A stretch of DNA of 45,743 nt from a virus. A program made the position numbers and the translations under genes. How positions within the stretch are numbered: position 1 is the first letter of the stretch; every line of letters starts with the position of its first letter. The notes under the pieces are model-generated. The model was not told where the DNA came from. It did not search any database and saw nothing but the letters and a program-made list of their open reading frames with translations. This document shows positions 5,090 to 33,013 of the stretch, in pieces. The DNA lies in UHGV virus genome UHGV-0129770; one strand, 5' to 3'.

Positions 5090-5117
5090 GTTAGAAAACT
5101 AAAATCAATGTTCTAAC
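5090..5117. promoter_or_regulatory. operator-like inverted repeat GTTAGA-N16-TCTAAC (site A)
   Basis: GTTAGA at 5090..5095, TCTAAC at 5112..5117, 16-nt spacer; same architecture at 10343 and 22242. Confidence 0.45.
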
Positions 5118-5143
5118 GTGATTTGAGTGCGTAAATGATTTGA

Positions 5144-5836
5144 TCAGACTTTAAGCTGCCCTCCCTTCACCTGCATTAGCGTCAGATTTCCGCAAAAAAC
5201 CGCGCCCGTGTCTATGTAGTGCTGATTCCAGTATGCTTTTGGTCTTCGTACCGGTGTGTGCCCAAAGATAAAGCGATCTGCGCCTGTGATTTCTCCACCA
5301 ATGCCATCTATCGAATCACCGACGCGACTGCGCGACCAGACAACATCAAAAAACGACACATCCTTACCGAACTGGTACTCTCCACCTGGATAGTCGGCAT
5401 GGGCTATAACGATAGTTTCATGCCCGGTGTTCAACTCAATGATATATGGCAGACGCTTTACCAGCTCCACCAGCGCCTTGGCTAATATTTCCTGATCAGT
5501 GCCCAGCATGAAGAACCATTGTCCGCCATTAATTAGCCAGTTATTCACGTTGCCATCAGGACTTAACGCATCAAGCATCAACCGCTCATGGTTCCCCATT
5601 ACTGCCCTGAACCAGGGCATCTGCAATAGTTCCAGACATTCGACATTTTCAGTACCGCGATCGATAAGGTCGCCAACCGATATCAGTAAATCCTGCGCCG
5701 GGTCAAAATCCACACGATGGAGTTCGGACATCAGTCTGGTGTAGCAACCATGCAGATCACCAACAACCCATATGTTTCTGTAGCCAGAACCATCAATACG
5801 GCTATATAAATTCACTTCATGCATAGTCTGGATCAT
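5144..5836 (-). CDS. serine/threonine protein phosphatase, lambda-type metallophosphoesterase
   Basis: Motifs GDLHG, GDLIDRG and GNHE; start set to ATG 5836..5834, which overlaps (ATGA) the stop of the upstream ORF. Confidence 0.85.
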
Positions 5837-6144
5837 GCGGCAACCTTCTCCCGCAGCCAGATACAAACTGGACCATCTTCAGTGTCATGAATAGAGCCAA
5901 CAAACCAGCCTTCACCCTCTGGTCGCTCCGGTTCCCAGGCGGCAATATCGGGACCAGCTGCGTCCAGATCAAAATCATCTTCATCCATACTGCGAATAGT
6001 CCACTGAAGATTATTTTCCTTCATCCAGGCGTCAAATTCCTCAGTGGAAATATATTCACGACCTGCGCAAAACTTCTCATACTCCGGATGTGTCCAGCAG
6101 CCATATTCATCACGTTCTACCGGCATTTCTTTAATGATGCTCAC
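5833..6144 (-). CDS. hypothetical acidic protein
   Basis: ORF track; GTG start at 6144 checked; coupled to the phosphatase gene. Confidence 0.4.
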
Positions 6145-6365
6145 TCTTCATCCTCCAAGTCGGCAACGGCCTCCATCACATCAGAACCGCGAATAACCTC
6201 AAAAGCACGGCAGGCCATTTCAAACACCTGTTGTTCTTGCGGATGCGGTGACTCCCAATACTTAAAACCAGGTCGATGCTCGTAACCCATCATGGAATAA
6301 AAATCGCCAGCAAGTTCAATCGCGGCATCAACAAGTTCGCGATTTGTCATCGTCTGTTCTGTCAT
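6141..6365 (-). CDS. hypothetical protein
   Basis: ORF track; operon context. Confidence 0.35.
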   Translation of the reverse strand: MTEQTMTNRELVDAAIELAGDFYSMMGYEHRPGFKYWESPHPQEQQVFEMACRAFEVIRGSDVMEAVADLEDEE

Positions 6366-6636
6366 TTGGTTTCTCCTGTCTGAACATCACTATCATCAGG
6401 TCGCCTTTTATCGCTATTCTGGCTGTTGTGCCTGGTTCAATGCGGCTAAGTTCAAATGCGTCATAGAACGCTTCTAATGCCTTCTGGCGTAGTTCCTGTT
6501 TGCGCCGTTTTTTCCACTCTTTTAGGAAAATGGAACCCAGCCATCGCCAGGTACGGGACATGATGTAAAGCCAACCGAGAAGTGCCAGACCGGTATTTAG
6601 GGCCGTATCGATCGTTATCGTGGTGTCGATATTCAC
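6328..6636 (-). CDS. hypothetical membrane-associated protein
   Basis: ORF track; hydrophobic stretch LALLGWLYIM; overlaps neighbour start, so its own start is uncertain. Confidence 0.35.
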   Translation of the reverse strand: MNIDTTITIDTALNTGLALLGWLYIMSRTWRWLGSIFLKEWKKRRKQELRQKALEAFYDAFELSRIEPGTTARIAIKGDLMIVMFRQEKPNDRTDDDKSRTC

Positions 6637-6881
6637 TGTGGTGGCTCCTGCTTTTCTGCCTTTAATACCATGCGAGAACCATCATCCAGCTCCCAATTAA
6701 TTTCACCGCCTTCAGCCATGACTAGATGCCAAACGAGTTGTGCGGCCTCGTTGGTTACATCACGACCGCGATCATTGCCGACACGACGTTTTGTTCCATC
6801 CCCTAAGTCACGCATTTTTGCCAACACGATGGTTTTTGATAGCGGTGAAAAACCAAGCTGTAGTCGTGCGGTATTACTCAC
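6633..6881 (-). CDS. hypothetical protein
   Basis: ORF track; operon context. Confidence 0.35.
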   Translation of the reverse strand: MSNTARLQLGFSPLSKTIVLAKMRDLGDGTKRRVGNDRGRDVTNEAAQLVWHLVMAEGGEINWELDDGSRMVLKAEKQEPPQ

Positions 6882-7519
6882 TGTTTGCCTCCTTTTCGAA
6901 GCTGGTCAGCGAACCTATCAGCTGCATCCGCGCAAGCAGAAGCAACGGAATCAAAAAATGGATCATCTCCGGTATCGCGCATCGTCAAAGCGAATGCCTC
7001 CACCCCTTGTGCCTGTATTTCTACAAGGTATGCCTTAGATGTAGTGCTTTTCGCCTCGCCTAATTCGTTATGAGCGATGTTCGCTATACATGCGATGTCT
7101 ATATCTGGATGATTAATTGGGCAATGGCTAAGAATTGCCTCAAGTGCTGCTTTTTTGCTTTGGCATTCCGCCACCATCGCCCCGCAATTGCTTTCATATT
7201 CGGCAATACGCTGTTTAGCAGCCTCCAGCTCAACACGCAGCTTCTCAAGCGTTAGAGCCATCTCCATGTTCTCTTCCAGCAGTTCAATCACATCAGGATC
7301 GCTATCATCAACTACTGTTATGCGCGATTTTTTGTAATGCTCGTCAGCATAAGTTCGTCCAGTTTTGAAGCATCCGTCGTCCTCCATGCCGGAACAGGCA
7401 TAAACAACATGTGATCCAGATATGCGCTGCATTGACATTTCCTCGCCACAAACAGAGCATTTAGGCGCTGGTTTCGGTGAAAAACGTTCACGTAACGTCT
7501 GATAGTAAAGCTCGCTCAC
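6878..7519 (-). CDS. Ea22-like modular phage protein, paralog 2 (N-terminal Cys4 ribbon)
   Basis: CSVCGEE...YACSG ribbon, coiled coil LTLEKLRVELEAAKQRIAE, C-terminal ADQLRKGGKQ. Confidence 0.5.
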   Translation of the reverse strand: MSELYYQTLRERFSPKPAPKCSVCGEEMSMQRISGSHVVYACSGMEDDGCFKTGRTYADEHYKKSRITVVDDSDPDVIELLEENMEMALTLEKLRVELEAAKQRIAEYESNCGAMVAECQSKKAALEAILSHCPINHPDIDIACIANIAHNELGEAKSTTSKAYLVEIQAQGVEAFALTMRDTGDDPFFDSVASACADAADRFADQLRKGGKQ

Positions 7520-8316
7520 TGGCTGCCTCCTTTGCGAAGCTGTTCAGCGATATCTTCGAGAACACCATCAGAGAATGAGCGGTCAAAATCGCCTTCCCGC
7601 GCATTAGCCATAAACTCAGTAGAGGTAAGAATCATCCGGGCAATATCCGCGGCGTTCTTCGCAGTATCATCAATAAAACCAGCTTCCCAGGCAGCCAGCA
7701 TTCTATTCGCCACAAAGTAAGCGCCCTCCTTGCGTGCTTCAGTCTTCACTTCATCCAGGAAAGTGTCGGTCGCAGGAGTGGTTTTTTGTGGTGATAGGGC
7801 GATACGAATTGTTTCAAGAGCTGGATCTATTTCCACTGTTGGCACCTTGATAAAACCAAGCTGCACGCCATTCATAATGAACGTGCGGCGATCCTCACAT
7901 ATCGCCTTCAGTCTCGCATTCTCCGCAGCCAGCGCCGCGCGATTACCCTCCAGCTCTGCAATGCGCTGTTTTGCGGTATCAAGTTCAATCGATAATTTTT
8001 CCAACTGCTCTTGATGCTTCTTGTATTCCTGATATGCGTGCCAGGACTGACCTTTGCGCACACTATCAGTAATATCAGTAATCTGTTCTGGTGTTAGCGT
8101 GGTCAGTGGCTGTGCTGGGAAAATCAGCACTTTCCCGGAATCCCAATCAAAACCAGCGTGAATTGACTGAACCTCAACTGAGGGTGTTGAACCAATGCTG
8201 CCAGGCGAATGAACAACGATCGTTACATCCATATCGCGACGATGGCTGTGGTTGTTGGACAAAATACGATTCAACAAAATACGATTCACCAACTCAGAAA
8301 ATTTGGAGAATTTCAT
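7516..8316 (-). CDS. Ea22-like modular phage protein, paralog 3
   Basis: C-terminal module TPATDTFLDEV...AEQLRKGGSQ is paralogous to the 8732..9220 product; start set to ATG 8316 (GAGG 6 nt upstream) rather than TTG 8328. Confidence 0.5.
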   Translation of the reverse strand: MKFSKFSELVNRILLNRILSNNHSHRRDMDVTIVVHSPGSIGSTPSVEVQSIHAGFDWDSGKVLIFPAQPLTTLTPEQITDITDSVRKGQSWHAYQEYKKHQEQLEKLSIELDTAKQRIAELEGNRAALAAENARLKAICEDRRTFIMNGVQLGFIKVPTVEIDPALETIRIALSPQKTTPATDTFLDEVKTEARKEGAYFVANRMLAAWEAGFIDDTAKNAADIARMILTSTEFMANAREGDFDRSFSDGVLEDIAEQLRKGGSQ

Positions 8317-8324
8317 GCGGAGCC

Positions 8325-8735
8325 TCAATATGCAAAATAGACCGTTGCCACGCCGTTATAGTGATCAAACGATACGGCGTTTACTTCATAACTGGCCGGG
8401 AGCTTCGAGCCAAGAACGTATCCGGGCCACGTTTTCCATGGAATTTCTCTATTCTCACTACCCCCATATACCGTACATCCAAGTGAACCTACAGCTTCAT
8501 TAGAACGCGTGCCGCACGTTATGAATCCCAGATTTTGCTTACTGCTCTTAATGGTGATTGAGTGAACGCTGGCTGATGCATTAGCAGCACGCTGTGCCTG
8601 TTGGTTTGCGATATTCGCAGAGTTCGCAGCAGCTACAGCAGCCGTAGTCGCGGCGGTAGAGGCTACAATAGCTGCTGAAGCATGCACTTGTTGGATATTC
8701 ACCAACAATGCCGCGACAAAAATCATCTTCTTCAC
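8325..8735 (-). CDS. exported hypothetical protein (signal peptide, Ala/Thr-rich)
   Basis: N-terminus MKKMIFVAALLVNIQQVHASAA is signal-peptide-like; nested between Ea22-like paralogs. Confidence 0.5.
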   Translation of the reverse strand: MKKMIFVAALLVNIQQVHASAAIVASTAATTAAVAAANSANIANQQAQRAANASASVHSITIKSSKQNLGFITCGTRSNEAVGSLGCTVYGGSENREIPWKTWPGYVLGSKLPASYEVNAVSFDHYNGVATVYFAY

Positions 8736-9220
8736 TTGTCAGCTCCTTTGCGAATCTGTTCCGCCCATTCTTCAAGGGATTTCTCCGCATATTCACCGGA
8801 CAGGCCATCAATCGGGTGCGGTTCATTAGCCAACTCTTCTTTCGCTGACAGAATCATGCGTGTAACGTCGAAAACTTCACGTAAAGACTTATTGATAAAT
8901 CCGTGGTTGAAAGCAGCAGCAAGACGGCTTGCGGTATAGTTAATCCCCTCGTTGCGAGCCTCCGCACGAATTTCAGCCAGAAAAGCATCGGTGGCTGGAG
9001 TTTCGCTGTGGTGCAGGGCATCGTTGATAATCATTGCAGCAACTCCGGCCTGCCCTGCATCCGTGACCGACACATGCTCAAGAGTTACAGCCATTGCATG
9101 TTTCAGCCCAGCATTCTCCGCCGCCAGCGCCGAGCGTTCTTTCTCAAGTCGGGAAATTTCCGTTACATACTCAGCGTTACGCTCTGCCAGTTGTGCTGGC
9201 GTTAAACCTTCAGACTTCAT
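8732..9220 (-). CDS. Ea22-like modular phage protein, paralog 4
   Basis: TPATDAFLAEIRAEARNEG...WAEQIRKGADK parallels paralog 3. Confidence 0.5.
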   Translation of the reverse strand: MKSEGLTPAQLAERNAEYVTEISRLEKERSALAAENAGLKHAMAVTLEHVSVTDAGQAGVAAMIINDALHHSETPATDAFLAEIRAEARNEGINYTASRLAAAFNHGFINKSLREVFDVTRMILSAKEELANEPHPIDGLSGEYAEKSLEEWAEQIRKGADK

Positions 9221-9527
9221 GTACTCTCCTTTCGAAATAAACGTACTGATTAATCATGCTCAAGGGCATTTCGAGTTTTTCTGCGATCTCACGGCGGGGA
9301 ACACCACACCGATGAAGCTGCCGTGCCAGTTCTATATCGCCCTGCCGGTATTTGGCTGACGGGTGAAAGTCTCCTTTCAGAATCATGCAGATCCGCAGTT
9401 GCCGCGCTTTGGTTCTGACAGCACTACCGGTACGCCCGATCAGCCTCCCAATACTCACGACTGTCATAGTCCCGGCGCACTGGCGGAGTATCATGATTTC
9501 CGCCCTTCCCCATCCCCGCCAGCTCAC
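9210..9527 (-). CDS. hypothetical protein, possible DNA-binding
   Basis: ORF track; basic helix-rich C-terminal half. Confidence 0.35.
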   Translation of the reverse strand: MSWRGWGRAEIMILRQCAGTMTVVSIGRLIGRTGSAVRTKARQLRICMILKGDFHPSAKYRQGDIELARQLHRCGVPRREIAEKLEMPLSMINQYVYFERRVHEV

Positions 9528-10299: not shown

Positions 10300-10342
10300 C
10301 ATGTCCTCCAAACATTTATCAGTGATGATATTAATGTTTTGT

Positions 10343-10370
10343 GTTAGAAAATCAATTTTGAATATCTAAC
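10343..10370. promoter_or_regulatory. operator-like inverted repeat GTTAGA-N16-TCTAAC (site B), upstream of the ref-like gene
   Basis: GTTAGA 10343..10348, TCTAAC 10365..10370; lies 50 nt upstream of ATG 10420. Confidence 0.45.
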
Positions 10371-10419
10371 CATTTTGATCAATCATAGAAAAATCGTTGA
10401 AAAGTAAGAGACTGCCATC

Positions 10420-10998
10420 ATGCAGAAACAGAGTTATTGGGAGAAACAGAGACAAAAAGCCATGCAAAAATTGGCTGACCCGGCCTGGCGAGAGGAACAA
10501 AGGGCAAAGCGCCTTCAACAAGCTCAACGCCAGCAGCAGCGAGCGAGAGAAAAGGCCGCATCGCCTGAATATCGGCAAAAGAAAAATGAAAAAGCAAAGC
10601 AATATGAACAGCGGAGAAAAGATAAAGCTGTATCCGCTCCGTCCAAAAAAACACGCACGTCACGCGGCCTGAAAGGCAGATCACTCACAGCCGATGAACG
10701 CCGGATACAGACCGCTATCGGTGCTCTCCCCTGCATTGCCTGCCATATTCACGGGCAACATAGCCCAGTGGTATCCCTGCACCATATCTTCGGGAGAACG
10801 GCAGAGAACGCGCATAAATATGTCCTCCCTTTGTGTAAATGGCACCACCAGTACGCAGCGCCAGCCGAGGTCCGAGAACAATATCCCTGGCTGGTCCCTG
10901 TTCATGCTGACGGAAAAATAGGCGGAAAAGCAGATTTCATGCGGCACAATGCCGATGAAATGACGTTGTATCAGATGGCGATTGAATTGATAAATTAG
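10420..10998 (+). CDS. Ref-like recombination enhancement protein (HNH-type nuclease)
   Basis: Basic low-complexity N-terminal half, then ALPCIAC...HHIFGRTA...LPLCKWHHQ...YPWLVPVHADG, an HNH/zinc-binding pattern I recall for P1 Ref; from memory. Confidence 0.55.
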   Translation: MQKQSYWEKQRQKAMQKLADPAWREEQRAKRLQQAQRQQQRAREKAASPEYRQKKNEKAKQYEQRRKDKAVSAPSKKTRTSRGLKGRSLTADERRIQTAIGALPCIACHIHGQHSPVVSLHHIFGRTAENAHKYVLPLCKWHHQYAAPAEVREQYPWLVPVHADGKIGGKADFMRHNADEMTLYQMAIELIN

Positions 10999-11508
10999 TT
11001 TTCTAACATTTTAAGTTGAATTGTAAATTTCTCCGATGTACATTCACTACCGATTGGCACACCGGTCAACTTTTTGAGACAAACTGTTTAGTTTTTCGTA
11101 TTATTGCCGCCGTCATACCTATGGCGGTGCAATATAGGTGGCTGAAAAGCCCCCGTTGACTCACGGTGTTCCAGCCTTTATTGCGCCGCCACCAGACCGT
11201 GGAACAGTCGATGGCGGCTCCGAAAGCAAGGAGTCACTACACTATGAACAACTACAGTCTTTTCCCATCACTCGTCGTCCACCACTCACGCGATAATCTG
11301 CATTCTTTACTCGCGTCGGGGGTGTCAAAATGACTGTTCGCTACCTCAACTTTCAAATCCAGAACATCACTGGCGGTTGCTATGACTGGTTTGTCACTCT
11401 CGGAAAAGAAGTGATCACCGGGAAGCTGGATGAAGTGAAAGTTAAAGCAATGGCCTACGCCTGCAAGCAAGCCCGGAAGAAATCCGCCAAAGCATAAAAT
11501 ACTGACTG

Positions 11509-11543: not shown

Positions 11544-11623
11544 GGCACCTTAGAAAAACGGGTGCCGGGATTGGAACCCCGGATAATGTCAAAGGCGACA
11601 CAGACGCCGAAAGCGTCTTTTTT
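11544..11623 (+). ncRNA. candidate c4-like antisense regulatory RNA (about 80 nt)
   Basis: Three hairpins: CGGCACC/GGTGCCG; CCGGG-loop AUUGGAAC-CCCGG; AGACGC-cgaa-GCGTCT followed by a T-run at 11618..11623. The loop is complementary to GTTCCAA at 11726..11732 in the downstream leader. Confidence 0.4.
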
Positions 11624-11808
11624 GTGTCATGCCATCGCACAGCCATACGTAGCGTTTAGCTCAGAGATCAATGGTAGTGCTGGCTGGGCTGCCGAAAGGC
11701 AGGCCGGTTCCCTTTGACGCCGGTAGTTCCAACCCAGTCAGTGCTACCGCCATTGAGATTGGAACCTCACGCGGTAGCTCCTTAACTTAGTCAAAGGAGG
11801 CTGCCAAT

Positions 11809-12024
11809 ATGGCTACTATCCCTACCCCAACTCATTCTGAATTTATCTGGCGTTTCTATTCCTGCCAAAAACACCTGTATATCTGCGTCATGGCTGCTAC
11901 CGAAGCAGAGGCGCGCTCATACCTTCCCGAAGAACCCTGCATTTTTGCTGCTCGCTTCACTCTTGATGCGATGGAGATCCTCAATTACTGGAATCTGCCG
12001 ATGAACTGCGTGGAGGCGCACTGA
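11809..12024 (+). CDS. Icd-like small protein (cell-division-inhibitor-like)
   Basis: 71 aa; AAGGAGG SD at 11794..11800; stop overlaps (TGATG) the start of the antirepressor gene; matches the c4-icd-ant layout. Confidence 0.45.
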   Translation: MATIPTPTHSEFIWRFYSCQKHLYICVMAATEAEARSYLPEEPCIFAARFTLDAMEILNYWNLPMNCVEAH

Positions 12025-12950
12025 TGAATCTGTCCATCTCTCAAAAAGCGACAATGACCAGCATTGAGATCGCGGAACTGGTAGGTAAGCGCCCTGATAA
12101 CGTTAAACGCACCATTGAACACCTGGCGGAACGGGGCGTAATATCTTTTCCTCAAATTGAGGAAAAGCCCACCGCAGGCCGCCCGGCGAGCTATTACGTC
12201 TTCGAAGGCGAGCAAGGCAAACGAGACAGCATTATTGTCGTTGCGCAGCTCTCTCCCGAATTCACCGCCCGGCTGGTGGACCGCTGGCGCGAACTGGAGA
12301 ATGCCCGGGTACAGTTAAAATCAAAAGCCGAAATTCTGGCTGAAATGGCGCAAATGCATCTTGAGCATGAACGCCGGATCAACGCCGTAAATGCCCAGGT
12401 AGCCGAGGTATCAGCACAAGTATCGATGGTCGCTGAAACACTCGAGCAAATCAAGAAAGGCAATATGCCGGAAGGTTACATTGGCTACCGCCAGCTGGCG
12501 GCGAAATGTGGCCTGACTGAAGCCAAATGTCGCAACCTGGTTAACGCTTTCCGGATTCCCACCGATACGCATGAGTTTTTAACTCCAGAGGGTTTGCTTG
12601 CGCGACGCTCCATTGTGGCCCTGGCCCCCTTCCGGAAAGCCTTTAAGCAGGTGATGTCGGAGGCAGAACCACGCAATAAACGCTGGTATCATCCAAAGAT
12701 GGGGATGTTTCAGGCAATCCACCATCCTGTGCCTGAAAGCCCAAAGGATAATCTGTCACTACATACCGTCAGAGAGAAGATCAGGACTGGATACGCAACA
12801 GTGTGTCGTCGTTCTTCCTGGCCTGAAGGTATATGGGTGTGGCCCGAAGGTGGATCACGAAAGCACTGGCGCACCATCCGTGACGGGAAAATCCATGCTA
12901 TTGATTTAGCTCCAGAGGATGTTATTGCTATGGACTGGATTGTTAGTTAA
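12024..12950 (+). CDS. Rha-family phage regulatory protein / putative antirepressor
   Basis: N-terminus MTSIEIAELVGKRPDNVKRTIEHL matches the Rha N-terminal domain as I recall it; followed by hairpin ATCCCCGGCG-ac-GCCGGGGAT at 12958..12978. Confidence 0.55.
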   Translation: MNLSISQKATMTSIEIAELVGKRPDNVKRTIEHLAERGVISFPQIEEKPTAGRPASYYVFEGEQGKRDSIIVVAQLSPEFTARLVDRWRELENARVQLKSKAEILAEMAQMHLEHERRINAVNAQVAEVSAQVSMVAETLEQIKKGNMPEGYIGYRQLAAKCGLTEAKCRNLVNAFRIPTDTHEFLTPEGLLARRSIVALAPFRKAFKQVMSEAEPRNKRWYHPKMGMFQAIHHPVPESPKDNLSLHTVREKIRTGYATVCRRSSWPEGIWVWPEGGSRKHWRTIRDGKIHAIDLAPEDVIAMDWIVS

Positions 12951-14354: not shown

Positions 14355-14571
14355 GTAAACAAAATGAAGTTTTATGTTACAAAAACAATCAACTACATCA
14401 ACATGATTTAGGCCAAATTTCGGTCAAAAAATAAAATCCACAAAAAGTGGTTGACACTATTTTGGAAATCACAAACTGCACATAATCCATCGCGCTAACG
14501 GCTCCCGTTGAAGGTTCTTTTGACGATTAACTTTCAGCCGAAGCGCGGTAGGGAGTCATAACGCCAAAGCA

Positions 14572-15411: not shown

Positions 15412-15604
15412 GTCATTCACTCCGTTTAATTTTTAATCTAATGCCAGCAAATGAAGCTGGCCCCCGCATAAAGATTAATGAAAGTCACTTGTCACCAGTG
15501 AGGGGATTTATGAACCACATCCCCCTGAACTGGTGGCCTGTCTGTTTCTCGCATTTCACACCCTGCATACAGTTTTCCCCAGGTTATGACTGAGGGGCTT
15601 TGTT

Positions 15605-20593: not shown

Positions 20594-21574
20594 GTGGCCC
20601 AGGAGTTACAACAATATTTTCTACAGTCAGTGCTCATTAACGATAACAAAGTGCCACGAGACTGGATTTTTACCGCAGTATATGTAGAAAAAACCAGCCT
20701 CAAAGCCCCCTTGCTAAAACTGGAAATTCATGACGCTACCGGCACCGTAATTGATGACTGGAAAGCCAAATACGGTGCATCGCTGGTGGCTGAAATGGGC
20801 GATCCAAACGGTAATGCAGGCACTTTTAAAACAGATTTCTTTGTTACGTCTGCAATGCTGGCTGGTGATGTTGTTACCGTTATTGCTGTCAGTGAAGACG
20901 TGCGCAGGTTTAAGATCCCCTCCCCGCGCACAAATTTACATACCAACAAAACACCAGACGCTATATTCAAGGCATATTCCGGCAAACTTAAAATTACCAG
21001 CAGCGTGCTAAAACGCGCAGTTACATATCATCTGAATGCCGGTGACAAACCGTCAAAAATGCTTTCGGAGATAGCGCGAGACAAAGGTGCATTGTGTTGG
21101 GTATGTCGGGGGGAATTTAACTTTTACACCCTGGCTGATCTGATGAAGCAAACGCCATCATTTACCTACGAGGGGAATAACCCTAAAGCAGAATACACTT
21201 TGTCAAAAATGCGCCTACTCCAACAGGAACATGCGACAACAGCAAAGAATCAATATCGTTTTGTTGGGTATTCCATGACCGATGGCTACGTCGAATATGG
21301 CGATAGCTCACTCCCAGTGCGTTATATATCCGACTCTGATATGGAAACTCTTCGCAATATGCAGCTGTCTCTCGTCCCCAAAATGGATATAGAAGTCGCA
21401 GGCAATCCTGATATAAAACCGGGGATGGTGATAGAGATTATCGTATACCGCTATGACCAGGAAAACCGCATTGATGAATCAATGCCCCGTAAGCTGATAG
21501 TAAAAAATGTTGCGCACTTTGAAGACCGCGTAGGCTACACAACACGAATGATATTGGGAGTGCCGAACAAATGA
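20594..21574 (+). CDS. hypothetical phage protein, possibly baseplate-associated
   Basis: ORF track; immediately precedes and overlaps the spike-like gene. Confidence 0.35.
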   Translation: MAQELQQYFLQSVLINDNKVPRDWIFTAVYVEKTSLKAPLLKLEIHDATGTVIDDWKAKYGASLVAEMGDPNGNAGTFKTDFFVTSAMLAGDVVTVIAVSEDVRRFKIPSPRTNLHTNKTPDAIFKAYSGKLKITSSVLKRAVTYHLNAGDKPSKMLSEIARDKGALCWVCRGEFNFYTLADLMKQTPSFTYEGNNPKAEYTLSKMRLLQQEHATTAKNQYRFVGYSMTDGYVEYGDSSLPVRYISDSDMETLRNMQLSLVPKMDIEVAGNPDIKPGMVIEIIVYRYDQENRIDESMPRKLIVKNVAHFEDRVGYTTRMILGVPNK

Positions 21575-22224: not shown

Positions 22225-22241
22225 AAAACGCACCCATTTAT

Positions 22242-22269
22242 GTTAGATAATTAATATGTATTTTCTAAC
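22242..22269. promoter_or_regulatory. operator-like inverted repeat GTTAGA-N16-TCTAAC (site C), upstream of rdgC
   Basis: Part of a 13-bp perfect palindrome CATTTATGTTAGA / TCTAACATAAATG; 15 nt upstream of ATG 22284. Confidence 0.5.
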
Positions 22270-22283
22270 ATAAATGGTGAGAC

Positions 22284-23189
22284 ATGAGATCAGTCGCTTT
22301 CAAAAATATCTTCATCTATCGTCTTTCACGCGAAGTTAGCTGGGATACTGCAGAAGTAAATGCAGCCCTTAGCAAGTTTGTGTTTACCCCATGCGGTTCT
22401 CAGGATATGGCTAAAGCTGGTTGGACCCCCGTTCTTGGCGACAACCTCACCCATGAATACCAGGGTTTTCTTCTGATGCAGCATAAACGAGAGGAAAAAA
22501 TCCTACCTTCTCAAGTACTCAAAGAAGAGTTACAGAAAAAAATCCTGAAACTTGAAGAAGAGCAAGACAGAAAGCTGAAGAAGACCGAAAAAGATTCGCT
22601 GAAGGATGAAGTGCTTCACTCTCTTCTTCCTCGCGCTTTCACGAGAAAATCAGTAGCTAAAATCCTGATAGACCGAAGCAATCATCTGGTTTTTGTCGAG
22701 GCCAGCAGTGCTAAAAAAGCAGAGGATCAGCTGGCTTTGTTACGGAAATCGCTTGGCAGCTTGCCCGTTGTCCCCTTCTCTCCGAAAGACCCATTAGAAC
22801 TGACCATCACTGGCTGGATTAAAAATGGCTTCCCGAACGGTTTCCGTGCCGGTGAGGAAGCGACCTTAAAAGCATTGCTTGATGATGGCGGCGCGGTCCG
22901 CTGCAAAAAAGTGGACCTGCTATCCGACGAGATCATGAGTCATATAGAAGCTGGTAAGGTTGCAACCACAGTTGCGGTTAACTGGCAAGACCGTGCATTT
23001 TTCAGACTGAATGACGATATGAGTATCAAGGCTTTGTCGTTCAGCGACGAATTGTACGACCAGAACGACGATATTGATCGAGAGGATGTTGCGCAACGAT
23101 TTGACGCTGACTTTATCCTGTTTACTGCTGAATTATCCGCGATGTTCACTTCGCTAGTGGAGGCCGTTGGTGGTGAAGCAGAACGTTAA
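22284..23189 (+). CDS. rdgC: recombination-associated protein RdgC homolog
   Basis: Long colinear matches to E. coli RdgC as I recall it: [87 protein letters not shown]. Confidence 0.85.
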
Positions 23190-25509: not shown

Positions 25510-27171
25510 TTAACCTAACTTCGCCCAAGTATCACGCAGCCCAACGGTGCGGTTAAATACCGGTTTTTCCGCCGTGGAATGGCGGCTGTCGAGGCAGAAA
25601 TAACCTTCACGCTCAAACTGGAATGCTTTACCCGCTACCGCTTCTTTCAGCGACGGTTCAGCAAAGCCCTGTTTGATCACCAGCGATTCCGGGTTAATCA
25701 CCGACAGGAAATCATCCGCAGCACCTGGGTTAGGCACGCTGAACAGACGGTCATACAAACGGATTTCAACCGGCAGCGCATGTGCCGCGCTCACCCAGTG
25801 AATAACACCTTTGACTTTACGACCATCTGCCGGATCTTTGCTTAAGGTGTCGGCGTCATAAGTACAGAAGATGGTGGTGATATTGCCTTCGGCATCTTTC
25901 TCCACGCGTTCTGCCTTAATGACGTAAGCATTACGCAGACGCACTTCTTTACCCAGCACCAGACGTTTGTACTGCTTGTTAGCTTCTTCGCGGAAATCGG
26001 CGCGATCGATCCAAATCTCACCGCTAAACGGCACCTGACGGCTGCCCATTTCCGGTTTGTTCGGATGGTTCGGCATGGTAACCATTTCGCCTTCGCCCTG
26101 ATAGTTTTCGATAACCAGTTTCACCGGATCGATAACCGCCATTGCGCGCGGCGCATTTTCGTTGAGATCTTCACGGATGCAGGATTCCAGCGACGCCATC
26201 TCAATGGTGTTGTCCTGCTTGGTCACGCCGATGCGTTTGCAGAACTCACGAATAGAAGCCGCAGTGTAACCACGACGACGCAGACCGGAAATGGTCGGCA
26301 TACGCGGGTCATCCCAGCCTTCAACGTGCTTGTCGGTCACCAGCAGGTTCAGCTTACGCTTGGACATCACAGTGTATTCCAGATTCAGGCGCGAGAATTC
26401 GTACTGGCGCGGGTGAACAGGAATGGTGATGTTGTCCAGCACCCAGTCGTACAGGCGACGGTTGTCCTGGAACTCAAGCGTACACAGAGAGTGCGTAATA
26501 CCTTCCAGCGCATCGCTGATGCAGTGGGTGAAGTCGTACATCGGGTAGATGCACCACTTGTTGCCAGTCTGGTGGTGTTCAGCAAATTTAATGCGGTACA
26601 GCACCGGATCGCGCATCACGATAAACGGCGAAGCCATGTCGATTTTCGCACGCAGGCAGGCTTTACCTTCTTCAAAACCACCGGCACGCATTTTTTCGAA
26701 CAGCGCCAGGTTCTCTTCAACGCTGCGGTCGCGGTACGGGCTGTTTTTACCCGGTTGCGTCAGGGTGCCGCGATATTCGCGGATCTGTTCCGGCGTCAGT
26801 TCATCAACGTACGCCAGGCCTTTATTGATCAGTTCGATCGCATAGGCGTGGAGCTGATCAAAATAATCGGAGGAGTAACGGACGTTACCAGACCAGTGAA
26901 AACCTAACCACTCTACGTCGTTTTTGATCGACTCAACATACTCGATATCTTCTTTTACCGGGTTAGTGTCGTCGAAACGCAGGTTGCACTGGCCTTTATA
27001 GTCCTGGGCGATCCCGAAGTTCAGGCAGATAGATTTCGCATGGCCAATATGCAGATAGCCATTCGGCTCCGGCGGGAAACGGGTGTGTACTGTGGTGTGC
27101 TTACCACTGGCCAGATCTTCATCGATGATCTGACGAATAAAGTTAGTCGGGCGGGCTTCTGCCTCACTCAT
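25510..27171 (-). CDS. glnS: glutaminyl-tRNA synthetase
   Basis: 553 aa; class I HIGH (PNGYLHIGH) and KMSKS-type (VMSKR) motifs; matches enterobacterial GlnS almost residue for residue from memory; C-terminus here ends ...TWAKLG. Confidence 0.9.
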
Positions 27172-28353: not shown

Positions 28354-28399
28354 GTCCGCACCTCGGCTTTATTACGGCTCTATTTTCACACTAAAACGG

Positions 28400-28590: not shown

Positions 28591-28593
28591 AAT

Positions 28594-28624
28594 TTGAACA
28601 AAAAAGGCTGCAATTTGCAGCCTT
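28594..28624 (-). terminator. intrinsic terminator of the parMR operon
   Basis: 9-bp stem AAGGCTGCA / TGCAGCCTT with loop att; T-run in the minus-strand sense. Confidence 0.55.
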
Positions 28625-28642
28625 AAGATAGAGTATGAACCG

Positions 28643-28987
28643 TCAATCAGGTAGAGAGTCAGCCAGATTGCGCGCCGACGCGCTTTTGGCAACAACTTGC
28701 TCCTTCACTGGCTCAATGGAGGCAGGGCGCTCCTCAACCGCAGCTGGTAGTTCCAGGAAGGATGCCAGCATTTTTCGGATCAGCTCCGGGTTATTGTCTT
28801 CGGTCAGCAGGGAAGCCAGTAATCCTGGAAGCCTGCTATCGACTTCTCCCAGCGCAAGCCCTGCCAACAATGCGGTTCTTGCCATATCGCTATGTTTTTT
28901 TATCTTCTCGCTCGCCGCCTTTTCATTGGCATAAGCCTCTGGGCGAAGATAAATCATCACTTTCTTACGTTCCTGAGACATGGACAT
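28643..28987 (-). CDS. parR: ParR/StbB-like centromere-binding partition protein
   Basis: MARTALLAGLALGEVDSRLPGLLASLL resembles R1 ParR (RLNRAALTAGLALYRQD...) from memory; directly downstream of parM. Confidence 0.65.
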   Translation of the reverse strand: MSMSQERKKVMIYLRPEAYANEKAASEKIKKHSDMARTALLAGLALGEVDSRLPGLLASLLTEDNNPELIRKMLASFLELPAAVEERPASIEPVKEQVVAKSASARNLADSLPD

Positions 28988-28994
28988 TACCTCG

Positions 28995-29951
28995 TTAACC
29001 GATTGCTTTCAGGCCATGAACAAGAGCAAGTTGCGGGTCATCCGCCACGAAGAAACGGTCATCACGAATATTAACTTGCTCGCGAATTGCATCTGCCACC
29101 AGCGGTGCGCCACCACCGATCACCATGACATGCGTATATCCTTTAAAGTCGCCAATCACATCAAGAACGCGGGTACGCAGACGGTCAATGCTTGCGGCAA
29201 TGGCCTTTTTCACATCACCAATCGCTGATGGGTCATTGATATTGTCGTTCAGATAATCTTCATCGTGGCGGTTAATAATGAGCTGATCGACATTGTAATT
29301 TGACGTTTCGGTATTGGCTCTGGCAAGTGCTTGCCTTACTTCCCTGGTAACCAGAGAGACGCCAAGATTCGAATCGCCAAAAACACGGGAAACTGCCGTC
29401 ATTTGCCCGGCGACCATTGAAACATCAAGGGTAGTTCCACCCAAATCGACGATAAGAACAGAATGGGCAGGGTTCAGATTGTCGCACAGGCCAATTCCTG
29501 CCGGAATAGACTCCGGGCGTACCGTAACTTTCTTAATCGTGAACACATTGCCTTTATTCAGCGTGACGGGGCGCATAAGGCTGGCTTTCTTGCGCTCGAT
29601 GTTATCGAGATTGTATTGCGCGTCGTCGTCGTAAAACTCCGCCAGAGGCAGCGTGACCACAATTTCTACTTCCTGCGGCTCAATGCCACTTGTCAGCAGG
29701 GCATGGTGAACAGCCAGGACGTTAAGCGGGCTGTATTGCCATTCCACGTTATTCGTCGGCAGAACATCTGGCGAGATCAAATCATACGAATACTTTTCGT
29801 CGTCAATGACATAGTTAAACGGCTTGCCCGCACCAAATGTTGCTGACCATCCGCGCTTAAAGCTGTTAGGGCTGATGTGAGTGCGAGTTTCCCCGTCGTG
29901 CTCCCACAGCATTTTGATATTGGTTGAACCATCATCGATAAAAATGCGCAT
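28995..29951 (-). CDS. parM: ParM/StbA actin-like partition ATPase
   Basis: MRIFIDDGSTNIK, ISPNSFKR, NVLAVHHALLTSG, IVDLGGTTLDVS, YGDSSLGVSLVT and GYTHVMVIGGGA match R1 ParM as I recall it; start set to ATG 29951 (GGAG SD) rather than GTG 29975. Confidence 0.85.
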   Translation of the reverse strand: MRIFIDDGSTNIKMLWEHDGETRTHISPNSFKRGWSATFGAGKPFNYVIDDEKYSYDLISPDVLPTNNVEWQYSPLNVLAVHHALLTSGIEPQEVEIVVTLPLAEFYDDDAQYNLDNIERKKASLMRPVTLNKGNVFTIKKVTVRPESIPAGIGLCDNLNPAHSVLIVDLGGTTLDVSMVAGQMTAVSRVFGDSNLGVSLVTREVRQALARANTETSNYNVDQLIINRHDEDYLNDNINDPSAIGDVKKAIAASIDRLRTRVLDVIGDFKGYTHVMVIGGGAPLVADAIREQVNIRDDRFFVADDPQLALVHGLKAIG

Positions 29952-29975
29952 CTTCTTGCTCCACTTCTGAGACAC

Positions 29976-30200
29976 ATTTGAGAATCAAAATGCAATTTTA
30001 AAAGAGAGGCCCCCAAAAATCCACACCAAAAGAGATAAAAAAGAGTGATTATTGAGTTCATTTTGAGAATATCTTAATCACCCAATGAATGATGGTCTGA
30101 CAGTGAGATTTATTTGAGAATGAATTGAGAATACAAAAATATTCCGAAATTGAACTCTCAGTTTGAATGACGAAATAACAAAGTGATGACAATAGGAGGA
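29976..30200. repeat. parC-like centromere/promoter region with TTGAGAAT direct repeats
   Basis: TTGAGAAT at 29978, 30063, 30114 and 30125 plus degenerate copies, immediately upstream of parM. Confidence 0.5.
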
Positions 30201-30217
30201 TAACCAGGAGGTGAAGA

Positions 30218-30502
30218 ATGAGCGCAATAGCCACCAGCGACACCCTTTGCTCTGGTCACGGAGGATTTCCGCCGCGACTGGTAGCTGAAACTGTTCCCTG
30301 GTTCACCGTTAACGGTAAGCCAGTTGTTGTAGATGGTGCCATGTTTCCCAGTCACACTGACGGTAACAGTGCACATCCAGGGGCAGCTGTATCGACGCGA
30401 GTATGGTTTTCGATAGGTGGAAAGGGAGTTGTCTGTGTAGGCGATCCGCTTTCTTGTGGTTCTGTTATCGCCAACGGCGAGGATATTTTTCAGGTTGCAT
30501 AA
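30218..30502 (+). CDS. PAAR-domain spike-tip protein
   Basis: CSGHGG...VNGKPVVVDGA...SHTDG...HPGAAVST...GGKGVVCVGDPLSCGSVI fits the PAAR pattern; GGAGGTG SD. Confidence 0.6.
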   Translation: MSAIATSDTLCSGHGGFPPRLVAETVPWFTVNGKPVVVDGAMFPSHTDGNSAHPGAAVSTRVWFSIGGKGVVCVGDPLSCGSVIANGEDIFQVA

Positions 30503-31305
30503 TGCTTGATTCAATAGGTGAAGTTAAAGCCTTCAAAATTCTGTCAGATGCCGGTATCTCTACACCAGAATCTATAACCATAAGCCGGGCAGCGTCTGTA
30601 AAAGCCTCATCACTCGCCAGCGCCATACAGGGAATAGTTCACGCCGATAAAACCTATCCTGATTCTGTTTCGGCCTGGACTACTCAATTGCTTGGCTTTT
30701 CTGAACAGCTAAATGAGGCCAGCAAAGCGTCTTCATTACTGGCTGATTCTCTTTCCCCTTACACCAAGCCATCAGAGCTGTTACAGATGAAGATTGGCTG
30801 GGAATGCTACGTAAAAGGTAACGAGCTGACCCCCATACCTGCTTTCGCCCTTGTTGAGGGGATGGGGAATGTTTCCATTCCGCAATCTCTAACGGACGCA
30901 TTGACGGCGCTAAAACTTGATGCTCTGAAAACCGCCATGAACGCCATTAACGCAAAAATAGAAGCTGCTGGAAGTGCTGGTGGTGATAGCAATGGTGGAC
31001 AGGGTGGTGCTGGGGGCGCTCAGGCTCCAGTCATTACTCAGGATGAAATTGAAGCTTTACGGGAAGCAGTGACAGCCGCCGAAGTTTTACTCTCCGAAAT
31101 TAACTCAGCAAGTGAGAGTGTCGTAGCCCTTACAGGTCGCATTAAAACGTCAACCACTCAGGCAACCAAAGGTTTAGAGAACGCTGTCGCCATCACGTTA
31201 ACTGGTTCTCTACTGGATGATGCAGTAATGAGTCCGGCAATCAGTTTAATCATGCCACAAGGCGTTATCGATGCGCTCCAAAAGAACACCAAAAAGGAAC
31301 CATAG
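30502..31305 (+). CDS. hypothetical virion-associated protein
   Basis: ORF track frame 30403..31305; start moved to ATG 30502, which overlaps (TAATG) the PAAR stop. Confidence 0.45.
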   Translation: MLDSIGEVKAFKILSDAGISTPESITISRAASVKASSLASAIQGIVHADKTYPDSVSAWTTQLLGFSEQLNEASKASSLLADSLSPYTKPSELLQMKIGWECYVKGNELTPIPAFALVEGMGNVSIPQSLTDALTALKLDALKTAMNAINAKIEAAGSAGGDSNGGQGGAGGAQAPVITQDEIEALREAVTAAEVLLSEINSASESVVALTGRIKTSTTQATKGLENAVAITLTGSLLDDAVMSPAISLIMPQGVIDALQKNTKKEP

Positions 31306-31360
31306 CAACACCACTTAGGAACACAAAAGGATGTGAATTGGTACATGTTTAACACCAAAA

Positions 31361-31834
31361 ATGAACCTAAAGAGGATGGTTTTGAAAAAGATAATTTTGA
31401 TTGTAATTGCGCTTTTAGCCATTTCTGGAATTTACCGAACAACGACGGCAGTTATCGAACACATCAGGTATGTCCGAGCGCTTGAAGACTCAAAATCACA
31501 ACTGGAAAGCACGAACAACACGCTTTCTACCGCATTACAGTTAAGTGAGAACGCTCGCTCAGCCATGCTGACCGAAAACGAAAGAATTAAAGCACTGGAA
31601 AAGGAGTACCAGCGCAAAACAGCAGAACTGAATGCCAACCTAATCAAACAACGGGAGGAAAGCCAGAATGAAATCACTCGCCTTGAAAATGCGTTACGCC
31701 GTGCTGGGATTAACGATGTGCGTGTGCCTGATGACGTTATCAGGATGCAGCGGGAACGGGCAAAAGCCATCAACCAGCGTGCCAGTGAAAATTACCGTAG
31801 AAGCCACCAGCAAGCCGCAGGCAAATCTGATTGA
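31361..31834 (+). CDS. Rz-like inner-membrane spanin
   Basis: N-terminal TM helix IILIVIALLAISGIY, then a long coiled coil; a lipoprotein ORF is embedded in the +1 frame. Confidence 0.6.
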   Translation: MNLKRMVLKKIILIVIALLAISGIYRTTTAVIEHIRYVRALEDSKSQLESTNNTLSTALQLSENARSAMLTENERIKALEKEYQRKTAELNANLIKQREESQNEITRLENALRRAGINDVRVPDDVIRMQRERAKAINQRASENYRRSHQQAAGKSD

Positions 31835-32000
31835 TTACTCCCCTTGTTTAGTGCCAGAAGACACGCCAGTGCTGTTAAACAAGTATCCGACATACGCTGA
31901 ACAGTTATTCAGCACGATCGACGAATGCAACCAACGAAACGCACTGAATAACCAAAGAAACAGGGAGATTTGGGAAGGGAAGGGGGATCAAGGCTCCTGA
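31668..32000 (+). CDS. Rz1-like outer-membrane lipoprotein spanin (start uncertain)
   Basis: Lipobox LTLSGC after a signal peptide; begins inside the Rz frame and extends past its stop. Confidence 0.55.
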   Translation: MKSLALKMRYAVLGLTMCVCLMTLSGCSGNGQKPSTSVPVKITVEATSKPQANLIDYSPCLVPEDTPVLLNKYPTYAEQLFSTIDECNQRNALNNQRNREIWEGKGDQGS

Positions 32001-32446
32001 AGCCAGATGTCCTGGCTGTCAGCTTCTTCGAAACCGTGACAGACGTTAAAGTCACTCAAACGATACTGACGCTGACGGCCCCTATTTCGCTCATGCCAAT
32101 GCATATATCCACCAGCAAATGCCAGCGGACAATCGCTATAGTCTATGTAACCAATACCATTCCCCAAACGTGCTTCGCGCGCACCAGCTTTCCAGGACAG
32201 TAGAAAAGAGTCACGATCCGCCAGCATAACAACAAAATCGTCCGGATCTCCGATACAGTGAAGAATACCTGCCTTACATAACTGCTTGAGCGCTTTTGAC
32301 TGGCTCAGGATGTCTTCTCCGTAATACTGAAAACAATCATCAACAACAGCGGGATAGCCTGTCGGGGGATTCAGGCTGGTTGGTATAGCTGACGCGATCG
32401 CCAGCATTAAGCGATATTGTGTTTTTGATGGGTTAACGTGACTCAT
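31988..32446 (-). CDS. hypothetical protein
   Basis: ORF track; convergent with the spanin genes. Confidence 0.35.
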   Translation of the reverse strand: MSHVNPSKTQYRLMLAIASAIPTSLNPPTGYPAVVDDCFQYYGEDILSQSKALKQLCKAGILHCIGDPDDFVVMLADRDSFLLSWKAGAREARLGNGIGYIDYSDCPLAFAGGYMHWHERNRGRQRQYRLSDFNVCHGFEEADSQDIWLQEP

Positions 32447-32462
32447 TTCGTCCCTTGTTTAC

Positions 32463-32897
32463 TCATTGTCGCCATGCATTTTTTAACTCAGGAATATCTG
32501 CCATTTCAATTAACTTGCGAAGTCCAGCACTGACTTTCCCATTGCCAACCATAGCAAGCCAATCTCTTACAGCTTTCGGCATGTAGAGCGTTGCAGTTAC
32601 CGGCTCTTCAACCCTGGCAGGACATCCGCATACAGGCCATTTAATTGATTCCATAACTTCGGATGCCGGGGTGAGGGCGGGGACATTGAGTATATCTCTA
32701 CCAGAAAACTGGATAACGATCCGTTCAGCGAGCGAGAGTATCTCACTTTCGGCAAGAATTGATGCCAACTGCGCCTCAACAAGAAAGCGACTTGTTGTGT
32801 TCAGAGAGTGGCTCTTAGCGCCATTTTTATACGAAACAAAGATTCGATACGCCATAACTCTAATGATTTGTGTTAGAAAACTAAAATTAAACCACAT
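32463..32897 (-). CDS. hypothetical protein (start uncertain: ATG 32897 or 32855)
   Basis: ORF track; a GTTAGA half-site at 32872..32877 lies inside or just upstream of the 5' end depending on the start. Confidence 0.35.
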   Translation of the reverse strand: MWFNFSFLTQIIRVMAYRIFVSYKNGAKSHSLNTTSRFLVEAQLASILAESEILSLAERIVIQFSGRDILNVPALTPASEVMESIKWPVCGCPARVEEPVTATLYMPKAVRDWLAMVGNGKVSAGLRKLIEMADIPELKNAWRQ

Positions 32898-33013
32898 AAC
32901 AACATGTGTGTTAATAGATTTTATTTTACTAAACCTATTGACTAAATCACAAAGTAGGTATTGTTAGCCCGTCAAAAGAACCTTCACGCCGCGCCCGAAT
33001 TTAGGGCTTAACC

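Follow-up and report, generated by a model that had tools for sequence, protein, structure and literature searches.

The window analysed here is the 45,743-nucleotide stretch of the virus genome UHGV-0129770, which is ~95% identical to the phage-plasmid D6, a distant relative of P1, and corresponds roughly to coordinates 41.6-85 kb of D6. An inverted repeat, GTTAGA-N16-TCTAAC, is found exactly at 5090-5117, 10343-10370 and 22242-22269, and has no other match in the window. Each of these repeats is composed of two asymmetric half-sites of ~20 bp, consensus ATTTGTGTTAGAAAAYTAAT, placed head-to-head, and the half-site is the unit of the motif. With a 20-nt scoring matrix, for which the three paired sites were the only training set, a total of six operator-type loci was obtained in the window, all of them intergenic.

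The first paired candidate operator (5084..5123; core 5090-5117; half-sites of 24.7 and 22.5 bits) is situated between ppp (5144-5866, minus strand) and a pdcB-like DUF968 gene (4051-5046, minus strand). It is kept in the same register in D6, pUTAK-19-1 and an S. dysenteriae plasmid, and the DUF968 gene is also preceded by a GTTAGAAAATTAA site in a lineage whose C1 repressor is 44% identical. The minus strand reads TTGATT-N17-TATTTT, a promoter-like arrangement that appears to overlap the downstream half-site. The second pair (10337..10376; core 10343-10370; 27.0 and 18.8 bits) lies in the divergent region between an orf88-like gene (start ~10301, minus strand), the head of a long leftward accessory operon, and ref (10420-10998, plus strand). 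The orthologous site of the S. dysenteriae plasmid has a nearly identical TGTGTTAGAAA.TCAATTTTGAAT.TCTAAC block; the orf88-side flank has diverged strongly, and the ref-proximal side keeps the block GATCAATCATAG. The third pair (22236..22275; core 22242-22269; 29.1 and 26.7 bits) immediately precedes the rdgC (hrdC-like) methylase operon, with the ATG at 22284. A -10-like GATAAT (22246-22251), part of a promoter-like TAGAAA-N18-GATAAT, is inside the upstream half-site, and the N16 spacing is present in all D6-like rdgC loci from IMG/VR.

Two single half-sites outside the training set were also recovered. One of them (10994..11013, minus strand, 23.8 bits) overlaps the ref stop codon (10996-10998) and lies upstream of a second c4/icd/ant-like immunity module, which comprises an isrK-like RNA (11545-11623), a C4 RNA (11667-11754), icd (11809-12024) and ant (12024-12950), the two RNAs being identified through Rfam matches. 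The partner position scores -14.9 bits, and the site is therefore taken to be monovalent; a putative promoter, TTGAAT-N17-TACATT, is found directly downstream of it. The other (32866..32885, plus strand, 25.1 bits) sits 10 nt upstream of an orf52-like gene (ATG ~32855, minus strand), in a region divergent from the major capsid gene (33014-34711). Its partner position scores -13.1 bits, 16 nt are the same as in the left half of the 5084..5123 site, and the site is kept in D6, pUTAK and the S. dysenteriae plasmid. We also note a weak, uncertain single half-site (TTTTATGTTACAAAAACAAT; 14370..14389, plus strand, 17.5 bits) in the divergent region between a simB-like gene and mat, whose orthologs in D6 and pUTAK score 18.1 bits and have GTTATA cores; no counterpart of at least 12 bits is found in the S. 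dysenteriae plasmid. As a consensus promoter scan gave nothing at the 5084..5123 site and weak matches elsewhere, the promoter assignments were made by eye.

The bare GTTAGA hexamer is not enriched in the window (13 observed vs 15.5 expected), so the special part of the motif is the pairing together with the extended half-site. GTTAGA-N16-TCTAAC was present in none of 100 dinucleotide-preserving shuffles, against three real sites, and when spacers of 12-20 nt and up to one mismatch were allowed, 16 was the sole spacing found in the window and two complete relatives. Under the matrix null, 0.24 matches reaching 14 bits are expected per window and the top score is 20.5, and TGTTAGAAAAYTAA with up to two mismatches has six matches in the window vs 0.97 expected. 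An earlier note on this DNA, made from the sequence alone, had described three sites with identical half-sites and 16-nt spacing, two further partial or half-sites, and a motif that should exceed its frequency in shuffled sequence; all of this is borne out, the two partial sites being those at 10994-11013 and 32866-32885. The perfect palindrome that it placed upstream of rdgC is likewise real and essentially as described, with a perfect stretch of 14 nt rather than 13 bp.

Beyond the window, in complete relatives, the motif occurs at about 13 loci, all intergenic. The approximately 13 loci of D6 are confined to the non-coding 10.5% of its genome, and 12 intergenic half-sites of at least 17 bits are present vs 0.04 expected from a Markov model of the intergenic DNA only. 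The sites are spread over >90 kb of the element and are also found before lpa, pmgS, c4-icd-ant, ref and hrdC/rdgC in complete relatives, positions at which P1 carries C1 operators defined by experiment. Single half-sites are as common as pairs; well-conserved ones without partner lie at c1, pmgS, the ref stop and cre/orf117, and for some sites counted as single a weak partner scores no lower than the 99th percentile of the background. Core blocks of the sites are kept in the S. dysenteriae plasmid. Plasmid pK91 of S. Typhi is a D6-like remnant only and of limited use for comparison.

As the earlier note had stated, the repressor is not identifiable in the window: tblastn found no C1 homolog there, and c1 is located outside, at D6 227-1264, between pacB and cre/rox in D6, pUTAK-19-1 and all relatives examined. 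With the repressor outside the window, we infer the link to C1 through these relatives. The D6 repressor is a collinear homolog of P1 C1 (21% identity, BLASTP E 2e-8) with a helical C-terminal extension of ~100 aa relative to it. Precomputed Pfam assignments place its family in PF27008 (Phage_P7_repressor_C1); a local Pfam search gave no match for D6 or P1 C1 and no Pfam helix-turn-helix domain. Relative to the c1 ATG, a motif site spans -33 to -14 in D6, pUTAK and 17 IMG/VR loci, and is invariant in the latter, where C1 is 79-100% identical. In complete relatives, the motif precedes the c1 start codon by 14 nt in every lineage examined. It is just upstream of c1 in the S. dysenteriae plasmid, pK91, L045 and L046, and a c1-proximal site is found in plasmids with C1 of 70% and 68% identity and in contigs with C1 of 51% and 44% identity.

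The motif tracks the repressor lineage. It is retained across lineages with C1 44-100% identical, takes the form TTCTAAGG in a relative with C1 30% identical, and is CTCTAAT in P1. The counts are 17 for TTCTAAC in D6, 12 for TTCTAAG in a Leclercia plasmid (C1 30% identical) and 18 for CTCTAAT in P1, and each of the three is rare in the other two genomes.

The C1 operators of P1/P7 have a 17-bp asymmetric consensus, ATTGCTCTAATAAATTT, with 22 dispersed sites (PMC8546580; annotation AF234172), and experimental control of ref, dmt and kilA by C1 in P1 has been reported (PMC4713147). The present element resembles the P1 ImmC system in having a repressor of the same family and many dispersed copies before early and accessory genes. 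The sites are likewise asymmetric, occur singly and in some cases paired, share a TCTAA/TTAGA core, and take orthologous positions at c1, lpa, pmgR/S, c4-icd-ant, ref, the ref stop and hrdC/dmt. The annotated P1 operators matched by position are Oref, Omat, Odmt (upstream of uhr-hrdC-dmt), Oc4, Olpa and OpmgR. The lpa sites of the two systems are 71 vs 74 nt from the lpa ATG, and Omat (P1 2628-2645) shares with the 10994..11013 site both its orientation and the way in which it overlaps the ref stop codon.

The P1 consensus, however, has no match with up to three mismatches in the window, by which P1/P7 immunity specificity is rejected. The D6-type half-site and the P1 operator have the TCTAA core in common; in all, no more than 10-11 of 17 positions agree, and the sequence is AT-rich. 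Judged by its operators, the element is a heteroimmune relative. The unit is ~20 bp long in contrast to 17 bp in P1, and the pairs are arranged head-to-head with cores 22 bp apart, whereas those of P1 Oban are tail-to-tail and overlapping, with cores ~11-12 bp apart. A tblastn search with the P1 Coi and Lxc (Lxc/Bof) proteins against D6, pUTAK-19-1 and the window returned nothing at E <=1, and Lxc was not detected in a D6-like plasmid (PMC6799933). Coi (inactivator) and Lxc/Bof (corepressor) are accessory, rather than core, features of the P1-type C1 regulon.

Multiple asymmetric operator or “stoperator” sites are also known from mycobacteriophages of the L5/L1 type (PMC1934351; PMC6550527). 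The likeness consists in one repressor acting through many dispersed asymmetric sites rather than through a small number of palindromic operators at a single switch; the repressor family and the host are unrelated. Moreover, the L5/L1 stoperators are found within transcription units, share one orientation and act by blocking elongation, whereas the D6-type sites are all intergenic, at promoters. Operators of the lambda type are palindromic and cluster at a single switch, where helix-turn-helix dimers (CI/Cro) bind them. The three reported sites are similar to these in being inverted repeats that overlap promoters, and differ in that single half-sites accompany the pairs in equal measure, the sites are scattered rather than clustered, and the repressor lacks a Pfam helix-turn-helix domain.

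Very probably, the sites serve as operators for the C1-type master repressor of an E. coli phage-plasmid that is D6-like and related to P1. The proposal of the earlier note that they serve a prophage repressor gains support from the c1-adjacent site, the P1 operator positions and the lineage-linked change of the motif. The motif, its statistics, the intergenic placement, the conservation, the positions at c1 and at P1 orthologs, the homology of the repressor and the lineage-specific change are direct observations, from which we infer physical binding of C1, its stoichiometry and repression.

An alternative is that a DNA-binding protein other than C1 is responsible, be it a phage regulator, e.g., a small helix-turn-helix protein of an accessory operon, or IHF, Fis or H-NS. 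In its AT-richness and intergenic placement the motif resembles many nucleoid-protein sites, and H-NS binds the ref regulatory region of P1 (PMC4713147). Nevertheless, a host factor explains neither the change of the motif with the phage C1 lineage and its constancy within the D6 clade, nor the invariant site just upstream of c1, nor the match to P1 C1 operator positions at about eight loci, and the site interiors, read by eye, do not fit the IHF consensus WATCAANNNNTTR. We regard this explanation, including another regulator that has co-evolved with the element, as unlikely.

It is highly improbable that the inverted repeats are nucleic-acid structures (RNA hairpins, terminators or cruciforms) instead of protein operators. 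The site in favor of this view is that of rdgC, where an extended stem-loop (22231..22280, plus strand) encloses the operator pair and folds at -19.4 kcal/mol (z -6.5). Its arms of 18 nt (22234-22251 / 22260-22277) are 94% complementary, with 14 nt perfect, and the 3' arm extends to GGUG of the rdgC Shine-Dalgarno sequence; the hairpin covers the ribosome-binding site. Across the rdgC loci 98.4% of cells are paired in the stem of 19 pairs, 7 pairs have changed on both sides, and the covariation score was reached by 0 of 500 shuffles; among the 12 cells that depart without two-sided change, eight are G-U/U-G on the sense strand and four are unpaired. In contrast, the folds of 5084..5123 and 10337..10376 are weak, at -7.3 kcal/mol (z -2.9) and -6.8 kcal/mol (z -1.4), and the RNA hairpin is rejected as a general explanation. 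Intrinsic terminators are rejected as well, since no G+C-rich stem with a T-run overlaps any of the three repeats. These results, together with the finding that most motif copies in complete elements are partnerless half-sites, suggest that structure is only an added role at rdgC, where the compensatory changes that keep the long palindrome point to a further function as an RNA hairpin.

Lpa-dependent late promoters of the P1 type, which also carry a short repeat-like box upstream of the -10 element, are an exceedingly improbable reading and were rejected: the box extracted from P1 (AAGTGACTT at -22, 4-5 nt from -10) is unlike GTTAGA, the only perfect P1-type late promoter match in the window lies elsewhere (15472-15490), and the motif precedes c1, lpa, ref and c4-icd-ant, which are C1-controlled and not late in P1. 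Chance recurrence of AT-rich promoter-like sequence would fit the frequency of the GTTAGA hexamer alone, but is refuted to near certainty by expectations far below the observed counts (shuffles, matrix null, Markov model and TGTTAGAAAAYTAA count) and by sites conserved across lineages whose surrounding DNA has diverged.

For the sites as C1 operators, the following mode of action is proposed. Each repressor molecule would recognise one ~20-bp asymmetric ATTTGTGTTAGAAAAYTAAT half-site. At the pdcB-like operon, orf88/ref and the rdgC-methylase operon, two half-sites would be used head-to-head in a fixed 20-bp register, which would place the paired cores about two helical turns apart on the same DNA face, and single half-sites would be used at the ref stop codon/second immunity module and at orf52. 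As the sites overlap or abut candidate sigma-70 promoter elements, bound C1 would block RNA polymerase, and the early and accessory operons would be silent in the plasmid-prophage state. Antirepressor action would free these operons together. The repressor itself would be supplied from the gene next to pacB and the cre/rox locus, outside the window.

To our knowledge, the fold of C1-family master repressors has not been solved. The predicted structure of C1, a model of moderate quality, resembles Tus; PDB sequence searches with C1, as single sequence and as profile, found nothing, and a BFVD fold search gave nothing significant. C1-family repressors may be Tus-like monomeric clamps, which would explain asymmetric sites of 17-20 bp, and in the D6 branch a helical module may have been gained at the C-terminus, joining two monomers bound to head-to-head sites with two helical turns between them. 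At rdgC, read-through transcripts from the late tail operon would have the rdgC ribosome-binding site masked by the hairpin; transcripts from the C1-controlled promoter within the hairpin would be devoid of the 5' arm and hence translated. The joint reading, in which C1 is a Tus-like monomeric clamp, the D6 C-terminal extension a coupling module and the rdgC element both operator and translational insulator, is speculative and rather doubtful as a whole.

An operator set is expected in this kind of element, and it does not overturn current understanding. Among the annotations of the D6 GenBank record are rox and cix sites but no operators, and no description of the motif or of D6 operators was found in full-text literature searches, whose scope lay outside the text of the D6 genome paper (Gilcrease and Casjens 2018). 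Knowledge of the operators would make immunity groups readable from sequence, predict accessory genes that are silent in lysogens (ref, the rdgC-methylase operon and antirepressors) and offer a design basis for reporters or titration decoys, a purpose that the P1 operator has already served. CTCTAAT (P1), TTCTAAC (D6) and TTCTAAG (Leclercia-type) form a small natural series for the evolution of C1 specificity. D6-like phage-plasmids are common in E. coli, Salmonella and Shigella, and 149 plasmid records carry the D6-type repressor.

Exact matches to GTTAGA-N16-TCTAAC are found in the window at 5090-5117 (site 1, at a pdcB-like DUF968 gene), 10343-10370 (site 2, between orf88 and ref) and 22242-22269 (at rdgC, an hrdC-like gene) and nowhere else in it, exactly as the earlier note had listed them, and none of 100 dinucleotide-preserving shuffles contained any such match. 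The GTTAGA hexamer alone occurs in the window at chance level (13 observed vs 15.5 expected), so what stands out is the pairing, together with sequence outside the hexamer. A spacer of 16 nt was the only one recovered when spacers of 12-20 nt, with at most one mismatch, were searched in the window and two complete relatives. The arms of the rdgC site extend to 18 nt with 94% complementarity, 14 nt of them being perfect. Alignment of the six arms and their flanks gave a 20-nt asymmetric half-site consensus, ATTTGTGTTAGAAAAYTAAT. A matrix trained on these six arms alone scores single half-sites in the window at 32866-32885, upstream of an orf52-like gene, with 25.1 bits and at 10994-11013 with 23.8 bits; the two partial sites first noticed in these places are therefore strong single copies. 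A weaker copy at 14370-14389, in the simB-like/mat divergent region, scores 17.5 bits and is followed by a next-best match of 13.9 bits, the null expectation being 0.24 matches per window at 14 bits or more. The partner positions of the single copies score at background level, which indicates that single and paired sites coexist. The real unit of the repeat is the 20-nt asymmetric half-site.

The window is ~95% identical to Escherichia phage D6 (MF356679), a phage-plasmid whose record relates it gene by gene to P1, and to many ~92-kb E. coli plasmids such as pUTAK-19-1; it corresponds to roughly 41.6-85 kb of D6 in reverse orientation. The six-arm matrix identifies ~17 half-sites at 13 loci in D6, with a clear score gap beneath. 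Although 89.5% of D6 is coding, every one of the 13 loci falls between genes, any overlap at a stop codon amounting to no more than 5 bases. Twelve half-sites of at least 17 bits were seen vs 0.04 expected under a second-order Markov model restricted to the intergenic DNA of D6; the motif frequency across the full element thus exceeds the shuffled expectation, the comparison on which the operator reading had been made to depend.

Systems of this kind are familiar from P1 and P7. P1 is reported to carry 22 dispersed operators that share an asymmetric 17-bp consensus, ATTGCTCTAATAAATTT (PMC8546580), and experimental C1 control of P1 ref, dmt, kilA, ssb and ban is reported in PMC4713147. The putative D6-type operators lie at the same places as the C1 operators of the richly annotated P1 record. 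Oref, upstream of ref, corresponds to D6 76612-76651 (window 10337-10376); Omat, which overlaps the ref stop codon, corresponds in the same orientation to D6 75975-75994 (window 10994-11013); and Odmt, upstream of uhr-hrdC-dmt, corresponds to D6 64111-64150 (window 22236-22275). Outside the window, Oc4, upstream of c4-icd-ant, is matched by D6 21242-21281, Olpa, which precedes the lpa ATG by 71 nt, by D6 4627-4646, which precedes it by 74 nt, and OpmgR by D6 9068-9087 and 10317-10336, which flank pmgS. A further D6-type site (D6 194-213) precedes the c1 start codon by 14 nt, and by analogy suggests autoregulation as in P1. No P1-type operator is present in the window within three mismatches. 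The paired geometry also differs between P1 and the D6 type, since Oban, the only annotated pair of P1, is tail-to-tail and overlapping, whereas the D6-type pairs are head-to-head. The D6 GenBank record annotates rox and cix sites and leaves the D6-type operators and head-to-head pairs unannotated; no description of them was found in the searchable literature, and an earlier mention in the D6 genome paper is possible.

As the earlier note had stated, the repressor itself cannot be identified in the window: the position of D6 c1 is outside it, and tblastn with D6 or P1 C1 returned nothing significant. In D6, orf1 (“similar to P1 gene C1”) is situated at 227-1264, between pacB and the cre/rox locus. 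D6 C1 (345 aa) is collinear with P1 C1 (283 aa), sharing 21% identity across 240 residues (E 2e-8) and having an additional C-terminal stretch of ~100 residues. A large protein database places both D6 C1 and its relatives in Pfam family PF27008 (Phage_P7_repressor_C1). Homologs of Coi and Lxc are not detectable in D6-type elements; Lxc was likewise not detected in a D6-like plasmid (PMC6799933). PDB sequence searches for C1 gave no match, nor did a BFVD fold search with an AlphaFold2 model of D6 C1, which was built from a 9-sequence alignment and is of moderate quality (mean pLDDT 70, pTM 0.45). The best PDB matches of this model in Foldseek are those of E. coli Tus-Ter DNA (E 1.5e-6, probability 1.0), at a TM-score of only 0.29-0.34. 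Tus binds as a monomer to an asymmetric site. A Tus-related fold would fit asymmetric C1 operators, a lead whose confidence is limited by the model quality.

The site upstream of c1, TTTTATGTTAGAAAACTAAA, is invariant in 17 IMG/VR loci with C1 79-100% identical, which likewise retain the site after cre and the one before lpa. In a S. dysenteriae plasmid whose C1 is 70% identical, the three paired sites are all preserved with unchanged register, as are most of the single ones; at orf88/ref, the operator block of this plasmid is nearly identical and the orf88-side sequence strongly divergent. In two contigs, L045 (C1 51% identical) and L046 (C1 44% identical), GTTAGAAAA is found upstream of c1 and lpa, downstream of cre and ahead of the DUF968/pdcB gene. 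Upstream of c1, where D6 has the proximal site only, these contigs have two GTTAGAAAA sites in opposite orientation ~80-95 nt apart (L045 9887/9969, L046 9881/9975), which bracket the presumed c1 promoter. Leclercia adecarboxylata pE1_003 (NZ_CP042508; C1 30% identical) instead has a different candidate operator, TTCTAAGG, ahead of c1, ref and further genes. The heptamer TTCTAAC occurs 17, 5 and 7 times in D6, the Leclercia plasmid and P1, respectively, TTCTAAG 3, 12 and 7 times, and CTCTAAT 8, 5 and 18 times. These reciprocal counts indicate that the TCTAA core is common to the family and that the flanking bases track the repressor lineage. We also note that the most frequent 9-mers of pE1_003 contain Chi (GCTGGTGGC and variants), and that S. 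Typhi pK91 (NZ_CP029871), a conjugative IncFIB resistance plasmid, harbors at ~59.9-67 kb a D6-like remnant with phd/doc, dut, cre, c1 and its upstream operator, and without phage structural genes.

The motif statistics, P1-operator positions, C1 homology and lineage tracking support the original proposal of prophage master repressor operators, and we infer that the repeat very probably serves as the binding site of a C1-type repressor. A regulator other than C1 could bind the same sites and retains a small probability; a host factor, for its part, would not vary with the C1 lineage of the phage. RNA structure cannot account for the motif in general, since folding is weak at sites 1 and 2 and the majority of copies have no partner. 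None of the three repeats is overlapped by an intrinsic-terminator-like site. Late promoters are excluded, because the P1 late box AAGTGACTT differs and the one such box in the window lies elsewhere. This perfect P1 late-promoter pattern (AAGTGACTTTCATTAATCT, 15472-15490, minus strand) is intergenic between mat and a gp26-like baseplate gene; at the corresponding gp26 locus of P1, two late promoters stand back-to-back.

In the proposed C1 mechanism, the protein would engage each half-site in a manner similar to that of P1 C1 at its asymmetric operator, and two C1 molecules would be placed head-to-head at three promoters, with cores 22 bp apart, or about two helical turns. Candidate promoter elements appear to overlap the operators. 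At rdgC, a promoter-like TAGAAA-N18-GATAAT has its -10 inside the upstream half-site, and GTTAGATAATT is unchanged across 13 distinct variants of the sequence; candidates picked by eye are TTGATT-N17-TATTTT at site 1 and, leftward, TTGATT-N16-TAATAT at site 2.

The rdgC operator pair lies within a palindrome (22231-22280) that is complementary in 13 distinct D6-like variants. Outside the invariant core the arms vary and stay complementary throughout (ATTTATG/CATAAAT, ATTTGTG/CACAAAT, AATTGTG/CACAATT, AAAACTGTG/CACAGTTTT). Both-side changes occur in 7 of 19 pairs of the stem, 98.4% of cells pair across the 13 variants, and the covariation score was reached by none of 500 shuffles; sliding the partner by 1-3 columns left pairing at only 33-52%. 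Among the 12 cells departing without a both-side change, 4 are unpaired and the other 8 are G-U/U-G on the sense strand. Because the operator next to c1 does not vary across the same lineages, a shift in repressor specificity does not account for the changes in the arms. These point to selection on base pairing, for which RNA is the simplest setting, and suggest that the palindrome forms an RNA hairpin in addition to an operator. The predicted fold has -19.4 kcal/mol, and its 3′ arm extends as far as GGUG of the rdgC Shine-Dalgarno sequence, part of which it covers. Plausibly, read-through transcripts from the upstream tail operon would form the hairpin and leave rdgC untranslated, and transcripts from a C1-controlled promoter inside the hairpin would lack the 5′ arm and permit translation.

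Rfam matches to isrK (11545-11623, plus strand, 62.7 bits) and C4 antisense RNA (11667-11754, plus strand, 77.1 bits) precede icd (11809-12024) and an antirepressor gene (12024-12950). Together they constitute a second ImmI-like immunity module, another copy of which is present in D6 outside the window. A full-length glutaminyl-tRNA synthetase gene, glnS, is located at 25510-27171 (minus strand) and is annotated in D6 and pUTAK-19-1 as well. The strongest inverted repeat of the window (40446-40493; 20-nt arms, 90% complementary, 8-nt loop) overlaps the 3′ end of a RepB-like replication initiator ORF (40490-41278, minus strand) and reaches just downstream of it.
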